Part shown: positions 1 to 16,758 of the stretch, one piece after another
How the letters are laid out: the number at the start of each line of letters is the position of its first letter
How positions within the stretch are numbered: position 1 is the first letter of the stretch
NCBI RefSeq assembly: GCF_013315695.1
Contig: NZ_CP054353.1
Reading direction: 5' to 3' (one strand)
DNA from: Escherichia coli
GTDB taxonomy: Bacteria > Pseudomonadota > Gammaproteobacteria > Enterobacterales > Enterobacteriaceae
DNA length: 64,000 nucleotides
Position numbers and translations under genes: made by a program
Notes under the pieces: model-generated
What the model saw: only the letters and a program-made list of their open reading frames with translations
Told to the model about the DNA's origin: nothing
The model's database searches: none

Positions 1-204
1 ATGATTGAATCAGGCGAGCAATATACGCATGCCAGTCTGGAAGCAGCAATTAAAGCGCGTTTTGGTGAACAGGCACGTTTTCACACCTGCTCGGCAGAAG
101 GGATGACTGCGGGAGAGTTGGTGGCGTTTCTGGCAGCAAAAGGCAAATTTATACCTTCAGAAGAAGGTTTTTCAACCGATCAGAGTAAGATTTGCCGTCA
201 CTGA
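1..204 (+). CDS. yecH: YecH-like small protein, 5' end cut by window edge
   Basis: Open frame from window start to TGA at 202-204; tail ...FIPSEEGFSTDQSKICRH; position next to ftnA matches K-12 synteny. Confidence 0.7.
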   Translation: MIESGEQYTHASLEAAIKARFGEQARFHTCSAEGMTAGELVAFLAAKGKFIPSEEGFSTDQSKICRH

Positions 205-241
205 TTTGAAACGGCGGCAGAAAACCTGCCGCCGGAGAGCA

Positions 242-739
242 TTAGTTTTGTGTGTCGAGGGTAGAGAGTTCTTTGTCGATAAAATACAGACCTTCGCCGC
301 TTTTGCCTGCAAGGCTTAATTTATCAATAATCGATTTGAACAGTTTCTCTTCTTCATGCTGCTCAGAAACATACCATTGCAGGAAATTAAATGTTGGGTA
401 GTCCTGATTGGTCATTGCAGCATGAGCCAGTTCGTTAATTTTCTGCGTGATTAATTGTTCGTGTTTATAGGTTTCCTGGAATAATTCATCAAGTGAGGAA
501 TATTCAGCAAACGGAGATTCAACGGTATTAATACGCGGTAAGTTGCCGGTATCAGTCAGGTAATCAAACAGACGCTGCATATGCGTCATCTCTTCCTGGG
601 CGTGACGGCGCAGGAACGCGGCAGCACCTTCGAAGGTATGATAGCTGCACCAGGCGCTCATTTGCTGATAAAGCAGTGAAGAGTACAGTTCCAGGTTCAT
701 CTGCTCATTAAGTTTTTCAATCATTTCTGGTTTCAGCAT
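242..739 (-). CDS. ftnA: ferritin FtnA
   Basis: 165-aa product [21 protein letters not shown]... recognised as E. coli ferritin; track ORF 242-754 extends 5 codons upstream of the likely ATG. Confidence 0.93.
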
Positions 740-910
740 GATAGTGCTCCACAAAGGTTATATTTGTTGCTGTAGCGTCACTATAATTTGTTATTTTATT
801 ATTTGCAAAAGGTAAAATATAAATATCATTTATTAAAAATACGAATGGGAATAAAACGCATTACCGCTATTTATTTAATCAGCGAAGATCCCCCTCGCTG
901 ATTAAAACGT

Positions 911-1234
911 TTAGAGAAAGACAGGGAAGGCGGAATGATGGCACTGATATGACAAAGTGAATTCCGTATTCAAACATAAGGAACCCGCAAAGAGGCTACA
1001 GTTGCCTACTGGCTGACCAAAGGGGATAGCGTGGGTATAGCCTGCCTGCTGGCATGCGCGATCGGCGATCCCGCGACTGACATAACGATCGGTACTGGCA
1101 TGCTGCAAAAAAGCCTGATCATAAACCAACCGAACAATACCTGTTGCCGCGTCAACTTCGCTCACATGGGCCTGGCGAGTAACCGTACATCCTGTCAGCG
1201 TTATTAAGGAAAGAGTCAGAATCAGAAGTCTCAT
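911..1234 (-). CDS. yecR: lipoprotein YecR
   Basis: 107 aa; N-terminal signal peptide with lipobox LTGC. Confidence 0.85.
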   Translation of the reverse strand: MRLLILTLSLITLTGCTVTRQAHVSEVDAATGIVRLVYDQAFLQHASTDRYVSRGIADRACQQAGYTHAIPFGQPVGNCSLFAGSLCLNTEFTLSYQCHHSAFPVFL

Positions 1235-1497
1235 GGTCCAGCCAGAAGAGTAAAAGAAAGCAGTATTTTACGCGTTACAGCGCTGCGACAATGGCCGGAA
1301 AAGACGCCTGGCAGGCGCTATTTCTTGCCATCTGTATGTGTTAGAAATTGGGGGGGCTGCTTTTTGATTATCATTTTTATAACATTAAAGGGGTATTTAT
1401 GTGATTTACATCACATAAAGATTGATTTTTGTGATGGTTGTCATATTATAAACGTAAAGACAATAACACCTGTATAACAAATGGTCGGAGTACCGCG

Positions 1498-1584
1498 ATG
1501 AAACTGCGCAAGATCCTGAAAAGTATGTTCAATAACTATTGCAAGACGTTCAAAGACGTACCGCCAGGCAATATGTTCCGATAA
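1498..1584 (+). CDS. azuC: 28-aa small protein AzuC
   Basis: ATG 1498 to TAA 1582-1584 encodes MKLRKILKSMFNNYCKTFKDVPPGNMFR; too short for the ORF track; followed directly by a terminator. Confidence 0.75.
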   Translation: MKLRKILKSMFNNYCKTFKDVPPGNMFR

Positions 1585-1585
1585 C

Positions 1586-1612
1586 AAAAAACCTGCTCCG
1601 GCAGGTTTTTTT
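1586..1612 (+). terminator. rho-independent terminator of azuC
   Basis: Stem acctgc / gcaggt (1591-1606) followed by T7 run. Confidence 0.7.
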
Positions 1613-1698
1613 GTGTTCTGATGACGGTGGATGTGACTATCGCTGAAGATGTGAAGCCGCTACTATAACGGCTTTCAAAATGCTATCAGGAGTTTACG

Positions 1699-1950
1699 AT
1701 GTCCCAGCCGCTGAATGCCGATCAGGAACTGGTTTCTGATGTGGTTGCTTGCCAGTTGGTTATCAAACAAATTCTGGATGTTCTCGATGTGATCGCGCCC
1801 GTTGAAGTTCGCGAAAAAATGTCCAGCCAGCTGAAGAATATCGACTTTACTAACCATCCCGCCGCCGCAGACCCGGTCACCATGCGGGCAATCCAAAAAG
1901 CCATCGCGTTGATTGAACTCAAGTTTACCCCACAGGGCGAATCCCATTAA
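1699..1950 (+). CDS. yecJ: YecJ, DUF2766 protein
   Basis: 83 aa [21 protein letters not shown]... Confidence 0.85.
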
Positions 1951-1984
1951 AAAACCGCTGCTTCAAAAAAATGAGGCAGCGGTT
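1948..1984 (-). terminator. rho-independent terminator of ftnB
   Basis: Hairpin aaccgctgcttca / tgaggcagcggtt (1953-1984); on the minus strand it is followed by a U-tract (A-run 1949-1954 on plus). Confidence 0.55.
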
Positions 1985-2027
1985 TCTCAAAAACTTCATC
2001 GGCGCAATGCATTAGCGCCGATGATGA

Positions 2028-2531
2028 TCAATGTAGCTGATGCGACACGACATTCAGAACATGTTGGTCGGTCTGCACAGGACACATACCAGCAAGTTTC
2101 GCACTGCGCACTTCATCAAGAATGGTTTGCAGTAACAGGCCATCATGCTGCTGTTCTTTTTCCAGATCGCGCAGGAAATTGACGGTTGAATCATCATTCA
2201 GTTCTTTCGCTTCATCGGCTAACTGCGCCAGCGTGCTTGAACGTTGCTCGTATTCTTCCATCGTTTTTTGGAACAGTTCTTCCAGAGAGTTCAGTTTTTC
2301 ACCGGGAACATCAATGGCTTTAACGATGGGGGTAGCGCCGACACTCTTCATAAAGTTAAACATGCGCATCATTTGGGTCACATTACTCTGTGCCTGGGCG
2401 CGAAGGAAAGTGGCGGTGCCGTTCAGACTCTGTTCAGAACACCAGTTACTCAGGTGAAGGTAGAGATTGGATGCGTAAAACTCGCGGTTCATTTGAGAGT
2501 TGAGTTTGAGAAGCATTCCAGCGGTTGCCAT
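2028..2531 (-). CDS. ftnB: ferritin-like protein FtnB
   Basis: 167 aa [30 protein letters not shown]... Confidence 0.9.
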
Positions 2532-3327
2532 ACCTAATATCCTTATATCCAGAAGTGGAGAGGTGCAAGATAAATCAAAACACCATAATTACTGTTTGCA
2601 GAATAATTCCTTTCTGCCGGTCCGAAATGTGATCGTGGAGTCAATTCTGACGATGATCTGAAATAAGAATAACGTCTGAACGGGTATAAGAAAATGCTTA
2701 AATCATCAAGTTTATATATTTTTACATTTCATTGATGAAATCAATGTAACTGTAATGAATTTTAATGATGGTGCTTTTTGTATCTTGTTGATATTAATCG
2801 ATGAATTTGAATTCATGATGAAGCAATGATTTTATAAAACGTTTTTTCATTTTTGCGATATAGCTCTCATTATACGTGTTCTGTTAATTAATGAGTACAG
2901 TGATAATTAATGGCGAAATGAATGACGCGCATTTTCCACATCTTTAAGTTGCGGTTATTACACCATTGCAAAAACTCAACGCCAGGTAATGAGGCCTATT
3001 GACTGGTTAAAAAGAAGACATCCCGCATGGGTACCAAAGACAACAAGGACTTCCAGGCTAATCTTATGGATTATTCTGCTGTGCACTCGATAATTTGTCT
3101 GACAAATTCGCTTTTCCTTATGTCTTTTCCCGCTAAATTTATGCACGTTCTCACTGTAATTCTGCGATGTGATATTGCTCTCCTATGGAGAATTAATTTC
3201 TCGCTAAAACTATGTCAACACAGTCACTTATCTTTTAGTTAAAAGGTAATGCTTTGTTTTCCGATTAATTTAACGAATGTCATTCGTTTTTGCCCTACAC
3301 AAAACGACACTAAAGCTGGAGAGAACC
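2532..3327 (+). promoter_or_regulatory. ftnB-araF intergenic region carrying the araFGH promoter (sites not resolved)
   Basis: About 800 bp AT-rich non-coding DNA upstream of araF; individual AraC/CRP sites not confidently located by eye. Confidence 0.35.
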
Positions 3328-4317
3328 ATGCACAAATTTACTAAAGCCCTGGCAGCCATTGGTCTAGCAGCCGTTATGTCACAATCCGCTATGGCGGAGA
3401 ACCTGAAGCTCGGTTTCCTGGTGAAGCAACCGGAAGAGCCGTGGTTCCAGACCGAATGGAAGTTTGCCGATAAAGCCGGGAAGGATTTAGGGTTTGAAGT
3501 TATTAAGATTGCCGTGCCGGATGGCGAAAAAACATTGAACGCTATCGACAGCCTGGCTGCCAGTGGCGCGAAAGGTTTCGTTATTTGTACTCCGGACCCG
3601 AAACTCGGCTCTGCCATCGTGGCGAAAGCGCGTGGCTACGATATGAAAGTCATTGCCGTGGATGACCAGTTTGTTAACGCCAAAGGTAAGCCAATGGATA
3701 CCGTTCCGCTGGTGATGATGGCTGCGACCAAAATTGGCGAACGTCAGGGCCAGGAACTGTATAAAGAGATGCAGAAACGTGGCTGGGATGTCAAAGAAAG
3801 CGCGGTGATGGCGATTACCTCCAACGAACTGGATACGGCTCGTCGCCGTACTACGGGGTCTATGGATGCGCTGAAAGCTGCAGGATTCCCGGAAAAACAA
3901 ATTTATCAGGTACCTACCAAATCTAACGACATCCCGGGGGCATTTGACGCTGCCAACTCAATGCTGGTTCAACATCCGGAAGTTAAACATTGGCTGATTG
4001 TCGGTATGAACGACAGCACCGTGCTGGGCGGCGTACGCGCGACGGAAGGTCAGGGCTTTAAAGCGAGCGATATCATCGGTATCGGTATTAACGGTGTGGA
4101 TGCGGTGAGTGAACTGTCTAAGGCACAGGCAACCGGCTTCTACGGTTCCCTGCTGCCAAGCCCGGACGTACATGGTTATAAGTCCAGCGAAATGCTTTAC
4201 AACTGGGTTGCAAAAGGTGTTGAACCGACCAAATTCACCGAAGTTACCGACGTGGTGCTGATCACGCGTGACAACTTTAAAGAAGAACTGGAGAAAAAAG
4301 GTTTAGGCGGTAAGTAA
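3328..4317 (+). CDS. araF: L-arabinose ABC transporter periplasmic binding protein
   Basis: 329 aa from ATG 3328, MHKFTKALAAIGLAAVMSQSAMA signal peptide; track ORF starts 17 codons upstream. Confidence 0.95.
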   Translation: MHKFTKALAAIGLAAVMSQSAMAENLKLGFLVKQPEEPWFQTEWKFADKAGKDLGFEVIKIAVPDGEKTLNAIDSLAASGAKGFVICTPDPKLGSAIVAKARGYDMKVIAVDDQFVNAKGKPMDTVPLVMMAATKIGERQGQELYKEMQKRGWDVKESAVMAITSNELDTARRRTTGSMDALKAAGFPEKQIYQVPTKSNDIPGAFDAANSMLVQHPEVKHWLIVGMNDSTVLGGVRATEGQGFKASDIIGIGINGVDAVSELSKAQATGFYGSLLPSPDVHGYKSSEMLYNWVAKGVEPTKFTEVTDVVLITRDNFKEELEKKGLGGK

Positions 4318-4386
4318 TTTGCCGGAAAAATTCCCCTCTGCATGATGCAGAGGGGGTGTGAACGACCAGTGATTCACGGAGACGTT

Positions 4387-5901
4387 ATGCAACAGTCTAC
4401 CCCGTATCTCTCATTTCGCGGCATCGGTAAAACGTTTCCCGGCGTTAAGGCGCTGACGGATATTAGTTTTGACTGCTATGCCGGTCAGGTTCATGCGTTG
4501 ATGGGTGAAAATGGCGCAGGAAAATCAACTCTCTTAAAAATCCTCAGCGGAAACTATGCGCCAACCACGGGTTCTGTAGTGATTAATGGGCAGGAAATGT
4601 CCTTTTCCGACACGACCGCAGCACTTAACGCGGGGGTGGCGATTATTTACCAGGAACTGCATCTCGTGCCGGAAATGACCGTCGCGGAAAACATCTATCT
4701 CGGCCAGCTGCCGCATAAAGGCGGCATTGTGAATCGTTCATTGCTGAATTATGAGGCAGGTTTACAAATTAAACATCTTGGTATGGATATTGACCCGGAC
4801 ACGCCGCTGAAATATCTCTCCATTGGTCAGTGGCAGATGGTTGAAATCGCCAAAGCGCTGGCGCGTAACGCCAAAATTATCGCCTTTGATGAGCCAACCA
4901 GCTCCCTCTCTGCCCGCGAAATCGACAATCTTTTCCGCGTTATTCGTGAACTGCGAAAAGAGGGGCGGGTGATCTTATACGTTTCTCACCGTATGGAAGA
5001 AATATTTGCCCTCAGCGATGCCATCACCGTCTTTAAAGATGGGCGTTATGTCAAAACCTTTACCGATATGCAGCAGGTTGACCACGACGCACTGGTGCAG
5101 GCGATGGTCGGGCGAGACATTGGCGATATCTACGGCTGGCAACCGCGTAGTTATGGCGAGGAGCGGCTGCGTCTTGATGCTGTGAAAGCACCAGGCGTGC
5201 GTACGCCAATAAGTCTGGCGGTTCGCAGTGGAGAAATTGTCGGTCTGTTTGGTCTGGTCGGGGCAGGGCGTAGCGAATTAATGAAAGGCATGTTTGGCGG
5301 GACGCAAATCACCGCCGGTCAGGTTTATATCGACCAACAGCCGATCGATATTCGTAAACCGAGCCACGCCATTGCCGCAGGCATGATGCTCTGCCCGGAA
5401 GATCGCAAAGCGGAAGGCATTATTCCCGTGCACTCCGTTCGCGACAATATCAACATCAGTGCCAGACGCAAACATGTGCTCGGCGGTTGTGTAATCAACA
5501 ACGGTTGGGAAGAAAACAATGCCGATCACCACATTCGTTCGCTCAACATCAAAACGCCGGGCGCTGAGCAACTGATCATGAATCTCTCAGGCGGAAATCA
5601 GCAAAAAGCTATTCTGGGCCGCTGGTTATCGGAAGAGATGAAGGTCATTTTGCTGGATGAACCTACGCGTGGCATTGATGTTGGTGCTAAGCATGAAATT
5701 TACAACGTGATTTATGCGCTGGCGGCGCAGGGTGTGGCGGTGCTGTTTGCCTCCAGCGACTTACCTGAAGTCCTCGGCGTTGCCGACCGGATTGTGGTGA
5801 TGCGGGAAGGCGAAATCGCCGGTGAATTGTTACACGAGCAGGCAGATGAGCGTCAGGCACTGAGCCTTGCGATGCCTAAAGTCAGCCAGGCAGTTGCCTG
5901 A
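4387..5901 (+). CDS. araG: L-arabinose ABC transporter ATP-binding protein
   Basis: 504 aa [17 protein letters not shown]...; two Walker A motifs ([17 protein letters not shown]). Confidence 0.95.
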
Positions 5902-5915
5902 GTAAGGAGAGTATG

Positions 5916-9268
<3,353 letters not shown>

Positions 9269-9274
9269 GTGCGG

Positions 9275-9703
9275 TTAATCTCCCGTAAGTGGAACTAACA
9301 GCACATCGACCTCACTTGAGGTAATCACTCTTTTCGCCGAGCAGGATGCTCGCGAAAAGAAACTGTGATTGTGATTACCGCAAATCACCAAATCGAAATG
9401 ATGTTTGCGACAAACTTCCAGAATATGTTCGCTTAACTCACCGTAGGCAATAAACGTCTTGTCAACGGGATACCCCGCATCCTGAATTAACTTATCAAGA
9501 AAGCTTTGCGTTTCTTCCTGCATCACATTGCGTAAATCTTCAAGCATCGGCGCAGCTAATTGATTGTACATTTCCGGGTCGGAAGCGAGAGTAATTAAAC
9601 TGATGTGTCCCTTTACTGGCCTGGCGATAGATACCGCTTTTGCCAGCAGTTGCTGACTTTCCGGTGTAACCGCAACGGCGACAAGAATATTGCTATAGCT
9701 CAT
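9275..9703 (-). CDS. uspC: universal stress protein C
   Basis: 142 aa MSYSNILVAVAVTPESQ... Confidence 0.9.
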   Translation of the reverse strand: MSYSNILVAVAVTPESQQLLAKAVSIARPVKGHISLITLASDPEMYNQLAAPMLEDLRNVMQEETQSFLDKLIQDAGYPVDKTFIAYGELSEHILEVCRKHHFDLVICGNHNHSFFSRASCSAKRVITSSEVDVLLVPLTGD

Positions 9704-10482
9704 AACCTGTTCCTTATTCTGTGAACTTCAGGTGACATTAAAGCTTTACTCCTAATGGAGAAACGACGCAATCCCAACTCAGTTAAACAGGTAAATATTA
9801 GTCTGGTCATTAGTAAATACAATTAATTAATTGCTCTTGGTTATCATATGATTTCAACTGTATTTATAAGAAAATAATGTACTGATTTCCCATATTGAAC
9901 AAGTGGTTAATATATGTAAAACATTTTATTAATATTAGGTTGATTGTTGCCTTTCTTTGTAGTTAATTAGTTTGTTGTGCGGTAAGTGTTTGTTTAAAAA
10001 TGGCTTATCTGGTATTGCATTAAAGCGATTATTTATAGCAGATGATTATTTACGGTGAGTTATTTTAACTGTGCGCAACATCCCATTTCGATTATTCCTG
10101 TTTCATTTTTGCTTGCCAGTGTAGCGAAAAATTTTTTAACAGATTGAAATACACCCAAAACAAAAGTATGACTTATACATTTATGTTAAGTAATTGAGCG
10201 TTTTGCGTGATCTGCATCACACATTATTGAAAATCGCAGCCCCCCTCCGTTGTATGTGCGTGTAGTGACGAGTACAGTTGCGTCGATTTAGGAAAAATCT
10301 TAGATAAGTGTAAAGACTCCCTTCTATTTGTAAGGACTTATTAAACCAAAAAGGTGGGTCTGCTTATTGCAGCTTATCGCAACTATTCTAATGCTAATTA
10401 TTTTTTACCGGGGCTTCCCGGCGACATCACGGGGTGCGGTGTGACCGCATAAAAATAAAGTTGGTTATTCTGGGTGGGAATA
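9704..10482 (+). promoter_or_regulatory. flhDC upstream regulatory region, about 780 bp, no IS element present
   Basis: Long AT-rich leader/promoter region upstream of flhD; no IS1/IS5-like ORFs or terminal repeats. Confidence 0.5.
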
Positions 10483-10833
10483 ATGCATACCTCCGAGTTG
10501 CTGAAACACATTTATGACATCAACTTGTCATATTTACTACTTGCACAGCGTCTGATTGTTCAGGACAAAGCGTCCGCTATGTTTCGTCTCGGCATAAATG
10601 AAGAAATGGCGACAACGTTAGCGGCACTGACTCTTCCGCAAATGGTTAAGCTGGCAGAAACCAATCAACTGGTTTGTCACTTCCGTTTTGACAGCCACCA
10701 GACGATTACTCAGTTGACGCAAGATTCCCGCGTTGACGATCTCCAGCAAATTCATACCGGCATCATGCTCTCAACACGCTTGCTGAATGATGTTAATCAG
10801 CCTGAAGAAGCGCTGCGCAAGAAAAGGGCCTGA
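10483..10833 (+). CDS. flhD: flagellar master regulator FlhD
   Basis: 116 aa from ATG 10483 ([24 protein letters not shown]...); track ORF starts at GTG 10474. Confidence 0.93.
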
Positions 10834-10835
10834 TC

Positions 10836-11414
10836 ATGAGTGAAAAAAGCATTGTTCAGGAAGCGCGGGATATTCAGCTGGCAATGGAATTGATCACCCT
10901 GGGCGCTCGTTTGCAGATGCTAGAAAGCGAAACACAGTTAAGTCGCGGACGTCTGATAAAACTCTATAAAGAACTGCGCGGAAGCCCACCGCCGAAAGGC
11001 ATGCTGCCATTCTCAACCGACTGGTTTATGACCTGGGAACAAAATGTTCATGCTTCGATGTTCTGTAATGCATGGCAGTTTTTACTGAAAACTGGCTTGT
11101 GTAATGGCGTTGATGCGGTGATCAAAGCCTACCGTTTATACCTTGAACAGTGCCCGCAAGCAGAAGAAGGACCGCTGCTGGCATTAACCCGTGCCTGGAC
11201 ATTGGTGCGGTTTGTTGAAAGTGGATTACTGCAACTTTCCAGCTGCAACTGCTGCGGCGGCAATTTTATTACCCACGCTCACCAGCCTGTTGGCAGCTTT
11301 GCCTGCAGCTTATGTCAGCCGCCATCCCGGGCAGTAAAAAGACGTAAACTTTCCCAGAATCCTGCCGATATTATCCCACAACTGCTGGATGAACAGAGAG
11401 TACAGGCTGTTTAA
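10836..11414 (+). CDS. flhC: flagellar master regulator FlhC
   Basis: 192 aa [27 protein letters not shown]...; zinc-binding Cys cluster near the C-terminus. Confidence 0.95.
11345..11371 (+). promoter_or_regulatory. sigma28 (FliA) promoter of the motAB-cheAW operon, inside the flhC 3' end
   Basis: TAAACTTT (11345-11352), 11-bp spacer, GCCGATAT (11364-11371); matches the TAAAGTTT-N11-GCCGATAA consensus. Confidence 0.7.
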
Positions 11415-11472
11415 CTGATACGGTGTGGCGAAACATTCCAGCAGCGGTAACGATGTACCGCTGCTTTTTTTT
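11379..11472 (+). ncRNA. motR: candidate MotR sRNA (motA 5' UTR-derived)
   Basis: About 94 nt between the sigma28 promoter and the intrinsic terminator at 11439-11472; coordinates approximate. Confidence 0.35.
11439..11472 (+). terminator. rho-independent terminator downstream of flhC
   Basis: Stem gcagcggta / taccgctgc followed by T8. Confidence 0.7.
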
Positions 11473-11540
11473 GCCCCTATCGCGTGTTAACGCCTGACGA
11501 CTGAACATCCTGTCATGGTCAACAGTGGAAGGATGATGTC

Positions 11541-11822
11541 GTGCTTATCTTATTAGGTTACCTGGTTGTTCTCGGTACAGTTTTCGGCGGTTATTTGATG
11601 ACCGGTGGAAGCCTTGGAGCACTCTATCAACCCGCTGAACTGGTGATTATTGCCGGTGCAGGGATTGGGTCGTTTATCGTCGGCAATAATGGCAAAGCGA
11701 TTAAAGGCACGCTGAAGGCGCTGCCGTTGCTGTTTCGTCGCTCCAAATACACCAAAGCAATGTATATGGATCTGCTGGCTCTGCTTTATCGGTTGATGGC
11801 GAAATCGCGGCAGATGGGGTAA
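11541..11822 (+). pseudogene. motA: motA 5' fragment (codons 1-93), interrupted by IS4
   Basis: GTG start, MLILLGYLVVLGTVFGGYLMTGG...AKSRQMG, then stop TAA formed by the first bases of IS4. Confidence 0.9.
11808..11819 (+). repeat. IS4 target-site duplication, left copy (cggcagatgggg)
   Basis: Identical 12-mer at 13246-13257 directly flanks the other IS4 end. Confidence 0.9.
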
Positions 11823-13245
11823 TGCCAGTCAGTTAAGCAACTGACTGGCTCTTTTTCGGGGCTGTGGGGTATTTCCAGGGCCTCTCCTTTACCACTCTCG
11901 GGAAGGCCCTTTCCCTTCTTGTCGGTAATTTCACAAGTTGTCCCATACTTGCAAGATCGCGCATCAGCTCCGGTATACGTCCCGGTGAAGCGCCCTGCAA
12001 TGTCATCAGCATTCTCATCACCATTCCGCATGATTCTGAGAAACTCAGTTGATTCGGCCAGTAACCTTTCAGATGTTCCGCCATTTTAATCATCTGATAT
12101 CTCACCAGATTATAAGCCAGTAAGACACCCCACAGCTCTTGCTCCACAAGCTCCGGTTTTTTACTTCTCAGCGTCAGCCTGCTCAGTTGCATCGTCTGTT
12201 TTATCTCCCTGTATCCCAGTTCGATTTCCCAGCGATGACTGTACAGATCCGCCATTTCTCCTCCGGGGAAGCGCATGGCGTCCGTCATCGACGTCAGCAG
12301 ATGGCAGACTTTTCCTTTGCGCGTCACGGTCAGCAGGCGGGCTGTCACTTCATTTCCCAGTCCCGGCCACTTTTTTCGTGCCTGCGGGCTGGTTTTCAGC
12401 TTCACCAGATGATCGCCTTTACCCAGTTTTCTGATCTCTTCATATTGCGCTCCCTTTCTGAGAGGTATCATCCAGTGGCGGTGTTCTCCCGCCAGGCTCC
12501 AGGCATTTAACAGTCCCAGTGAGTAATAACCTTTATCCATTAACGTCAGAGTGTTATCGCCGGTTTGTTCTATAAGTTGCTCAGCAAGCTCATTTTCGCT
12601 GTTCTTCATCGTGCCGAAGGCTGCAGCCGTCAGCAGATGGCTGGTCAGTTCCATCTGGCAGACCATTTTGACCTGCGGGTAGAGCGCCGGGTTCCCGGCA
12701 TGTGTCTGGCGGGGGAAGGCTGCATCGTTCTCTGGTGTATCCGGTGTGCGCCAGAACACACCATCGATGGCCAGCAGGGTCAGGCCGCACCAGTGCGGAT
12801 GCGGCGTGGCGTTATGCCAGAGCTGCGCTGTTTTCGTGAACACGCGGCGGACAGCCTCACTTCCCAGGCGCTGGCGGGCCTGAATAACGGCACTGGGGGC
12901 AACGAAGGGGCGATTGCCCGGCAGCATGATGTCCAGGCGATTCACAATCTGGTGAAGAGGTTCTTTACGCTCAAGCGCCATGCCAACAATACACCAGACC
13001 ATCATTTCGAGGGGAAGACGGCGCTTGCGTAGCGTTACAGTACCTGATTCGGCAAGGCAACGAGAGATGAGTTCGGGGTCGAGGTAATCCCCCAGAGAAG
13101 TCAGTGGGTTACGCAGAGAATCGTAACGGGATACCAGATCAAGAGCCTGTCCAATGTGCATAAAAAAATCCGGAAACAAGTGAGCGTTTCCGGATTCTTA
13201 CACAGCCACTGGATCGGTCAACTGATCCTTAACTGATCGGCATTA
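11820..13245 (-). mobile_element. insertion sequence IS4, complete, 1426 bp
   Basis: Imperfect terminal inverted repeats (left taatgccagtcagttaag, right-end reverse complement taatgccgatcagttaag, 16/18 match); one 442-aa transposase ORF; length equals the canonical IS4 size; flanked by 12-bp direct repeats. Confidence 0.92.
11833..13161 (-). CDS. insG: IS4 transposase InsG (DDE family)
   Basis: 442 aa from ATG 13161 ([48 protein letters not shown]...); track ORF starts at an upstream TTG (13179). Confidence 0.9.
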
Positions 13246-13257
13246 CGGCAGATGGGG
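13246..13257 (+). repeat. IS4 target-site duplication, right copy (cggcagatgggg)
   Basis: Identical to 11808-11819. Confidence 0.9.
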
Positions 13258-13862
13258 ATGTTTTCGCTGGAACGCGATATTGAAAATCCCCGTGAGAGTG
13301 AGATCTTCGCCAGCTACCCACGCATCCTTGCGGATAGCGTCATGCTTGAATTTATCGTCGATTATCTGCGCCTGATTATCAGTGGTCACATGAACACCTT
13401 CGAAATCGAAGCTCTGATGGATGAAGAGATTGAGACGCACGAAAGCGAGGCAGAAGTCCCGGCGAACAGTCTGGCGCTGGTCGGGGACTCACTTCCGGCG
13501 TTTGGTATTGTTGCGGCTGTAATGGGGGTCGTTCACGCGTTAGGTTCAGCCGATCGTCCTGCCGCCGAGCTGGGGGCGCTTATCGCTCATGCGATGGTGG
13601 GGACTTTCCTCGGTATTTTATTGGCTTACGGATTTATTTCCCCATTAGCGAGTGTTTTACGTCAGAAAAGCGCCGAAACCAGCAAAATGATGCAGTGCGT
13701 CAAAGTCACTCTGCTTTCAAATCTGAACGGTTACGCACCGCCTATCGCCGTTGAGTTTGGTCGCAAAACGCTCTATTCCAGCGAACGTCCGTCGTTTATT
13801 GAGCTGGAAGAGCATGTGCGTGCGGTGAAAAATCCGCAACAACAGACGACAACCGAGGAAGC

Positions 13863-13866
<4 letters not shown>
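13246..13866 (+). pseudogene. motA: motA 3' fragment (codons 90-295)
   Basis: In-frame continuation RQMGMFSLERDIENPRESEIF...QQQTTTEEA; stop overlaps the motB ATG. Confidence 0.9.

Positions 13867-16758
<2,892 letters not shown>

Follow-up and report, generated by a model that had tools for sequence, protein, structure and literature searches.

An uninterrupted uspC–flhD regulatory region in a non-K-12 Escherichia coli with disrupted flagellar genes downstream

Insertions of IS1 and IS5 in the region upstream of flhD raise flhD expression and motility in E. coli (PMC5100188, PMC5493358), which poses the question of what an unoccupied region at this locus says about the strain that carries it. 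We addressed this question in a 64,000-nucleotide stretch of E. coli DNA from contig NZ_CP054353.1, referred to here as the window; all coordinates are window positions unless stated otherwise. A first-pass annotation of the window had described the region between uspC and flhD as free of IS elements, had set this against common laboratory K-12 stocks, and had proposed that a native master operon stands above broken structural genes, such that motility was lost downstream of the regulator rather than at it.

The limits of the region could be placed exactly. On its left side, uspC (universal stress protein C; 9275–9703, minus strand) is a 142-aa open reading frame (ORF) divergent from flhD, preceded by otsA on the plus strand (7835–9268); its product is 97% identical to K-12 UspC, and the identical sequence in strain MSB1_4I is annotated as uspC. 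Between the uspC start codon (9703–9701, minus strand) and the flhD ATG at 10483 lies an intergenic regulatory region of 779 bp (9704–10482) with 35% G+C and no mobile-element sequence. Its G+C content falls to a minimum of 25.5% in an AT-rich part around 9800–9999. The longest ORF contained within the interval encodes 32 aa, and a 40-aa ORF at 9700–9822 extends 4 bases into uspC.

Global alignment to the 1555-bp uspC–flhD interval of MG1655 yielded 736 matched positions, 43 substituted ones and one gap of 776 bp, which corresponds to IS1H (768 bp, annotated in MG1655) together with the 8-bp duplication CATTTATG. Once IS1H and the duplication are taken out, the MG1655 interval is also 779 bp long and aligns to the window interval without any indel, at 94.5% identity. 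As the alignment contains this one gap and no other indel, the MG1655 backbone outside the IS accounts for the window interval base by base. The inverted repeats of IS1 and IS5 had no match at up to 3 mismatches in the whole 64-kb window; direct repeats were sought in the interval and none found, and the inverted repeats detected there were solely pairs of 12–13 nt, at chance level. The explicit search for termini covered IS1 and IS5, and the exclusion of other mobile elements rests on colinearity.

The known insertion targets themselves are present and empty. The octamer CATTTATG, duplicated around IS1H in MG1655, occurs at 10178–10185 as a single, unoccupied copy. It adjoins TTAA (10186–10189), the published IS5 hot spot at −99 to −96 relative to the flhD start site (PMC5100188), which is likewise single at the site and unoccupied, such that neither the 8–9-bp target duplication expected for IS1 nor the 4-bp duplication expected for IS5 is seen. 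Taking an IS-activated flhDC allele to be one with IS1, IS5 or IS3 upstream of the flhD promoter, at approximately −96 to −476 from the start site, we found no such arrangement here. With exact coordinates, an indel-free alignment and no matches to termini, the description of a 779-bp interval without IS1 or IS5 ORFs or termini is borne out. The comparison with MG1655 that had been suggested as a check leaves IS1H and its 8-bp duplication as the sole gap, and the IS termini or transposase remnants in 9704–10482 that would have contradicted the description were looked for and not found, being excluded by the indel-free colinearity.

How unusual is this state? Of 5426 complete E. coli genomes, 5421 had a match to the interval, and 5271 of the 5426 contained it in one piece at a coverage of at least 80%. 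A 120-bp segment around the hot spot (10128–10247) was uninterrupted in 5270 of the 5398 genomes with a match to it. The MG1655-type IS1 junction was present in about 89 complete genomes; the 12 matches listed all come from genomes of about 4.6 Mb, 11 of them with the junction at the same coordinate as MG1655, and look like K-12 derivatives. Full length, uninterrupted and colinear with other E. coli, the window interval has the form of a wild-type region. The IS-free uspC–flhD region is confirmed and is the species default, at about 97% of sequenced E. coli, and at this base rate the absence of IS elements is no statistical anomaly. That K-12 insertions at this place raise flhDC expression agrees with IS1H in MG1655, with the approximately 89 genomes carrying the junction and with published work (PMC5100188, PMC5493358). 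The contrast drawn with K-12, in turn, has no diagnostic value, since the genome is not K-12 and about 97% of E. coli have no IS here.

The placement of the strain outside K-12 follows its closest matches. Across the interval, identity was 100% to MSB1_4I, 99.4% to LF82, SE15 and NRG 857C, and 94.5% to K-12. LF82, SE15 and NRG 857C belong to phylogroup B2 and, judged by closest matches, the window strain, which is not K-12, is of phylogroup-B2 type. An affiliation with Shigella or K-12 was considered and rejected, the best matches being of the LF82/SE15 type and K-12 identity in the interval being as low as given above. The wild-type flhDC regions of LF82 and SE15 share with the window the 779-bp length, the register, the position of the CRP site and the FlhD protein (WP_001295647.1). 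Five substitutions separate the window interval from LF82 (9828, 9933, 10206, 10318 and 10442); that at 10206 is a rare C at the first base of a CRP half-site, and another falls within a hairpin loop of the leader.

Divergence from K-12 is unevenly spread across the interval. The segment 9804–9903 has 19 substitutions in 100 bp, compared with 2–6 per 100 bp in the rest. This divergent patch falls within the part of the interval richest in A+T, towards uspC, and within it LF82 and the window differ at one position (9828). It could represent an old allele, recombination or weak constraint.

The closest relative, MSB1_4I, is a human rectal-swab isolate from Australia and is 99.99% identical to the window: 100% over 1–11819, and with 5 substitutions and one 1-bp indel over 13246–64000. 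The sole structural difference between the two is an IS4 element at 11820–13245. A literature search for MSB1_4I gave nothing relevant. AF3, a strain from the UK, is a further close relative. Differences from MSB1_4I were recorded at 21548, 25848, 49637, 51420 and 53284. At 21548 (cheY, synonymous, L81) and 25848 (flhE, A24V) it is the window strain that has the private change, AF3 and K-12 having the other base; the difference at 13304 (motA) is a change private to MSB1_4I. They are too few to test relaxed selection.

Colinear mapping of MG1655 position 1978395, the end of AsflhD, places the flhD start site at 10285, 198 nt 5′ of the ATG, and this placement puts the published IS5 hot spot exactly on TTAA at 10186–10189. 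A probable core promoter on the plus strand (10251–10278), assigned from its spacing to the start site, comprises a −35 element TTGTAT (10251–10256), a 16-bp spacer and a −10 element TACAGT (10273–10278). The segment 10222–10317, which spans the probable −35 and −10 elements and the start site and runs 33 nt into the leader, is identical to K-12. The known flhD promoter was missed by a consensus scan for promoters, which returned two weak minus-strand sites alone, fewer than in shuffled sequence, and is uninformative.

The 5′ untranslated leader of flhDC (10285–10482, plus strand, 198 nt) carries 7 substitutions relative to K-12 and 2 relative to LF82. It contains GGA motifs at 10291–10293 and 10334–10336, which are presumably linked to CsrA binding, and a small hairpin at 10437–10449 (GCGGT-GTG-ACCGC), in the loop of which the substitutions at 10442–10443 fall. 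Opposite the leader, the position equivalent to the antisense RNA AsflhD is 10285–10504 on the minus strand (MG1655 b4839); AsflhD is complementary to a 220-nt fragment of the flhD 5′-UTR (PMC9600491). The position equivalent to the small RNA MotR, made up of the flhC 3′ end and the motA leader, is 11378–11472 on the plus strand (MG1655 b4828), with 3 substitutions relative to K-12. An Rfam scan of 9000–14000 at E-values up to 1 gave no match, AsflhD and MotR included, and both are therefore placed by colinearity with the MG1655 annotation alone; for AsflhD, Rfam contains no model.

Both genes of the master operon are intact. The reading frames of flhD (10483–10833, plus strand) and flhC (10836–11414, plus strand) encode proteins of 116 and 192 aa, respectively, each 100% identical to its K-12 counterpart, and flhD has one synonymous difference from K-12. 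The definition of a wild-type class I region that we followed also names a promoter response to CRP, H-NS, OmpR, LrhA and RcsAB.

Downstream, motA is split at codon 93 by a 1426-bp IS4 element on the minus strand (11820–13245; ends TAATGCCAGTCAGTTAAG and TAATGCCGATCAGTTAAG). By tblastn with K-12 MotA, the 5′ fragment (11541–11819, plus strand) covers codons 1–93 at 100% identity and the 3′ fragment (13246–13866, plus strand) covers codons 90–295 at 99% identity. A 12-bp target duplication, CGGCAGATGGGG, is found at 11808–11819 and 13246–13257, and the transposase ORF (11833–13179) matches the IS4-family model NF033592 with 304 bits against a cut-off of 115. Length, ends, duplication and transposase family all agree with IS4, which we take to be an element of about 1426 bp with terminal inverted repeats, an 11–13-bp target duplication and a DDE transposase. 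The insertion is strain-specific: no complete E. coli genome among the 5426, MSB1_4I included, carries it. The element lies in the opposite orientation to motA and should also be polar on motB, cheA and cheW. In the relatives, IS1 is represented by at least 40 pieces and IS4 by about 18 copies, which marks the clone as IS-rich; since the median is one IS4-matching place per genome, IS4 appears to be actively expanding in it.

A second lesion lies in flhB (22559–23707, plus strand), where a TGG-to-TGA change at 23591–23593 creates a premature stop, W345*, at codon 345 of 382, with loss of the last 38 residues including the proline-rich tail. Among the 5426 genomes this allele was found solely in MSB1_4I and AF3, and flhB is a pseudogene (internal stop) in both. 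In Shewanella, deletion of the C-terminal proline-rich segment of FlhB cut flagellation by about 30% (PMC7771051). Because Salmonella FlhB truncated to residues 1–350 retains function, in the account of Inoue et al. 2019 given in PMC7771051, FlhB 1–344 may be weakened rather than null. The proposal that structural genes downstream of the regulator are broken thus holds for motA::IS4, and flhB W345* may be leaky.

Between tar and cheR, tap is reduced to a remnant (19134–19357, plus strand) that by tblastn retains the first ~45 and the last 38 codons of K-12 Tap, and the same pseudogene is present in MSB1_4I and AF3. A tap gene reduced in this way is frequent among extraintestinal B2 strains and does not count as a lesion of motility. 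The genes motB, cheA, cheW, tar, cheR, cheB, cheY, cheZ, flhA and flhE are full length in the window. Between flhE and argS, where yecT and yecV stand in MG1655, a gap of 52 bp remains (26171–26222), and both genes are absent, as they are from MSB1_4I.

The lineage has its largest flagellar lesion outside the window. MSB1_4I and AF3 are without fliE–fliQ and most of fliR, owing to an IS1-flanked deletion (MSB1_4I, L011 20659–21457; AF3, L012 11146–11944) situated about 21 kb beyond window position 1. The layout is the same in both relatives, with yedK followed by IS1, which takes the place of all genes from the neighbours of yedK to fliE–fliQ, and then by a 90-bp fliR 3′ remnant beside rcsA. 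These two genomes alone carry the IS1–fliR junction at 100% identity, at record positions 3047318–3047457 in MSB1_4I; fliZ, fliA, fliC, fliD, fliS and fliT are still annotated as intact in both. Four other genomes have an independent IS1 near the fliR 3′ end, which hints at a recurrent IS1 site there. Since loss of fliE–fliQ and most of fliR removes genes for the MS ring, the C ring and the export gate, the clone is very probably aflagellate. We infer that the window strain shares the fli deletion of its relatives and cannot swim, and that flhDC is still transcribed normally in it. Motility loss downstream of the regulator, as first proposed, is then right in direction; its largest cause in the lineage falls beyond the window, and the non-motility of the strain is itself something that we infer.

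One feature of the regulatory region bears on whether the promoter has been left untouched. Sequence comparison placed a putative cAMP-CRP site core, CGTGATCTGCATCACA, at 10206–10221, centred at −71.5 from 10285. We take this to be the flhDC CRP site, which Soutourina et al. 1999 reportedly placed at −71.5, an assignment with which the coordinates are internally consistent; a literature text search for the position of the flhDC CRP site gave nothing directly relevant. The core reads TGTGATCTGCATCACG in K-12 and TGTGATCTGCATCACA in LF82 and SE15, in which it is a perfect palindrome (TGTGA-N6-TCACA). At the level of sequence, the window thus combines a CRP-type site at −71.5 with a conserved core promoter and start site. 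The T-to-C change at 10206 turns the left half-site from TGTGA, as in the LF82 type, into CGTGA, and the resulting core, CGTGA-N6-TCACA, exactly mirrors that of K-12, TGTGA-N6-TCACG. An exact 50-mer with C at 10206 was found at full length in 3 of the 5426 genomes (MSB1_4I, AF3 and MS1679), and at most 5 records fall in the band of 99% or better identity. MS1679 is an unrelated strain (98.2% identity, full-length tap) in which flhDC, motAB, the che genes, tap and flhB are annotated as intact; flhA is partial in the compared stretch, with no pseudogene flag.

Such a change could lower promoter activity relative to the LF82-type site, and it might be argued that it weakens cAMP-CRP activation, such that flhDC output was reduced at its promoter, whether early in the loss of motility or through drift once motility was gone. 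The C allele in its 50-bp context is indeed rare (3, at most 5, of 5426 genomes), two of its three carriers belong to the clone with the fli deletion and flhB W345*, the core is perfectly palindromic in LF82 and SE15, and flhDC transcription reportedly depends on CRP. The window site, however, mirrors the functional K-12 site and, CRP being a symmetric dimer, its affinity should be close to that of K-12. CRP should thus bind it about as well as it binds the K-12 site, and less well than the LF82-type palindrome. The first base of TGTGA also counts less than the two G positions, and the unrelated MS1679 carries the same 50-mer together with an intact flagellar annotation. We therefore hold a promoter turned down in this way to be quite unlikely, and very unlikely the more specific proposal that the substitution is an adaptive down-tuning of the master promoter in a human-associated, IS-laden clone shedding its flagellar regulon stepwise with flhDC intact. 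The flhDC promoter is regarded as essentially native, as far as its sequence would indicate, with down-tuning a modest possibility. The earlier description of a native master operon accordingly stands for FlhD and FlhC, with their full identity to K-12, and for the matching core promoter, and is qualified by the rare T-to-C change in the CRP half-site.

Our preferred reading, in which we place high confidence, is that the interval is the ordinary uninterrupted class I flhDC regulatory region of a non-K-12 E. coli, and that flagellar decay has proceeded downstream of an intact regulator. The region consists of an AT-rich upstream stretch, in which K-12 stocks gain activating IS1 and IS5 insertions, followed by the CRP site, the core promoter and the leader, with AsflhD opposite. 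No mobile element would ever have become fixed between uspC and flhD, the IS1 and IS5 targets remaining single and intact. That an IS was once present and later excised has a negligible probability: the clone is IS-rich and the interval a known insertion hot spot, but there is no target duplication or other indel relative to either the MG1655 backbone or LF82, length and register are the same as in thousands of genomes, and precise excision is rare. Lacking a duplication scar, past excision was rejected.

On the preferred reading of decay below an intact regulator, an IS-rich clone that includes the window strain, MSB1_4I and AF3 would be losing its flagellar regulon downstream of flhDC. Loss of the fli genes would have disabled the system and, the clone being very probably aflagellate, motA::IS4 would be a later, additional insertion into an already disabled system. 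The flhD hot spot would remain unoccupied on the view that insertions at this place become enriched solely where motility is selected for, since an aflagellate clone cannot respond to such selection. Selection for non-flagellar regulatory roles might instead have kept flhDC in such a clone. In its favour, FlhD and FlhC are fully conserved, whereas damage has reached at least two further flagellar loci of the window and another one in the relatives. Yet the clone is very young, the window differing from its relatives by few substitutions per 10–60 kb, and at such an age genes should be intact with or without selection. The same is true of flhA, flhE and most che genes, which have remained intact too. 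We consider this explanation unlikely.

Set beside known systems, the window has the same backbone as MG1655, the same segment 10222–10317 and the same FlhD and FlhC, and differs from it in the absence of IS1H and in the 43 substitutions. IS5-bearing K-12 stocks (MC1000 and motile BW25113 derivatives) again share the backbone, with TTAA being unoccupied in the window. The nearest parallel to the decay itself is IS-mediated loss of flagellar genes in Shigella and E. coli B, likewise an IS-rich background, with IS4 in motA as the instance in the window and the IS1-flanked loss of fliE–fliQ and most of fliR as that in the relatives. E. coli B has an IS1-associated fli deletion. According to the summary in PMC5100188, Shigella carries IS1 in flhD or flhC. 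One or other of these genes harbours the IS in S. flexneri and S. dysenteriae, whereas the clone studied here retains both master regulator genes, and the promoter that drives them, in intact form.

Freedom from IS elements upstream of flhDC is the default in E. coli, and nothing in these results departs from known biology; as the flhDC regulatory region is among the best studied in E. coli, the finding itself matters little. Its value lies in the context, namely a very recent, strain-specific motA::IS4 insertion in a clone that already carried flhB W345*. Should this clone be studied, the rare CRP-site variant would offer a cheap target for a reporter assay. Taken as a whole, the locus illustrates, on a small scale and in a natural setting, how flagellar genes decay below a master regulator that is itself intact.
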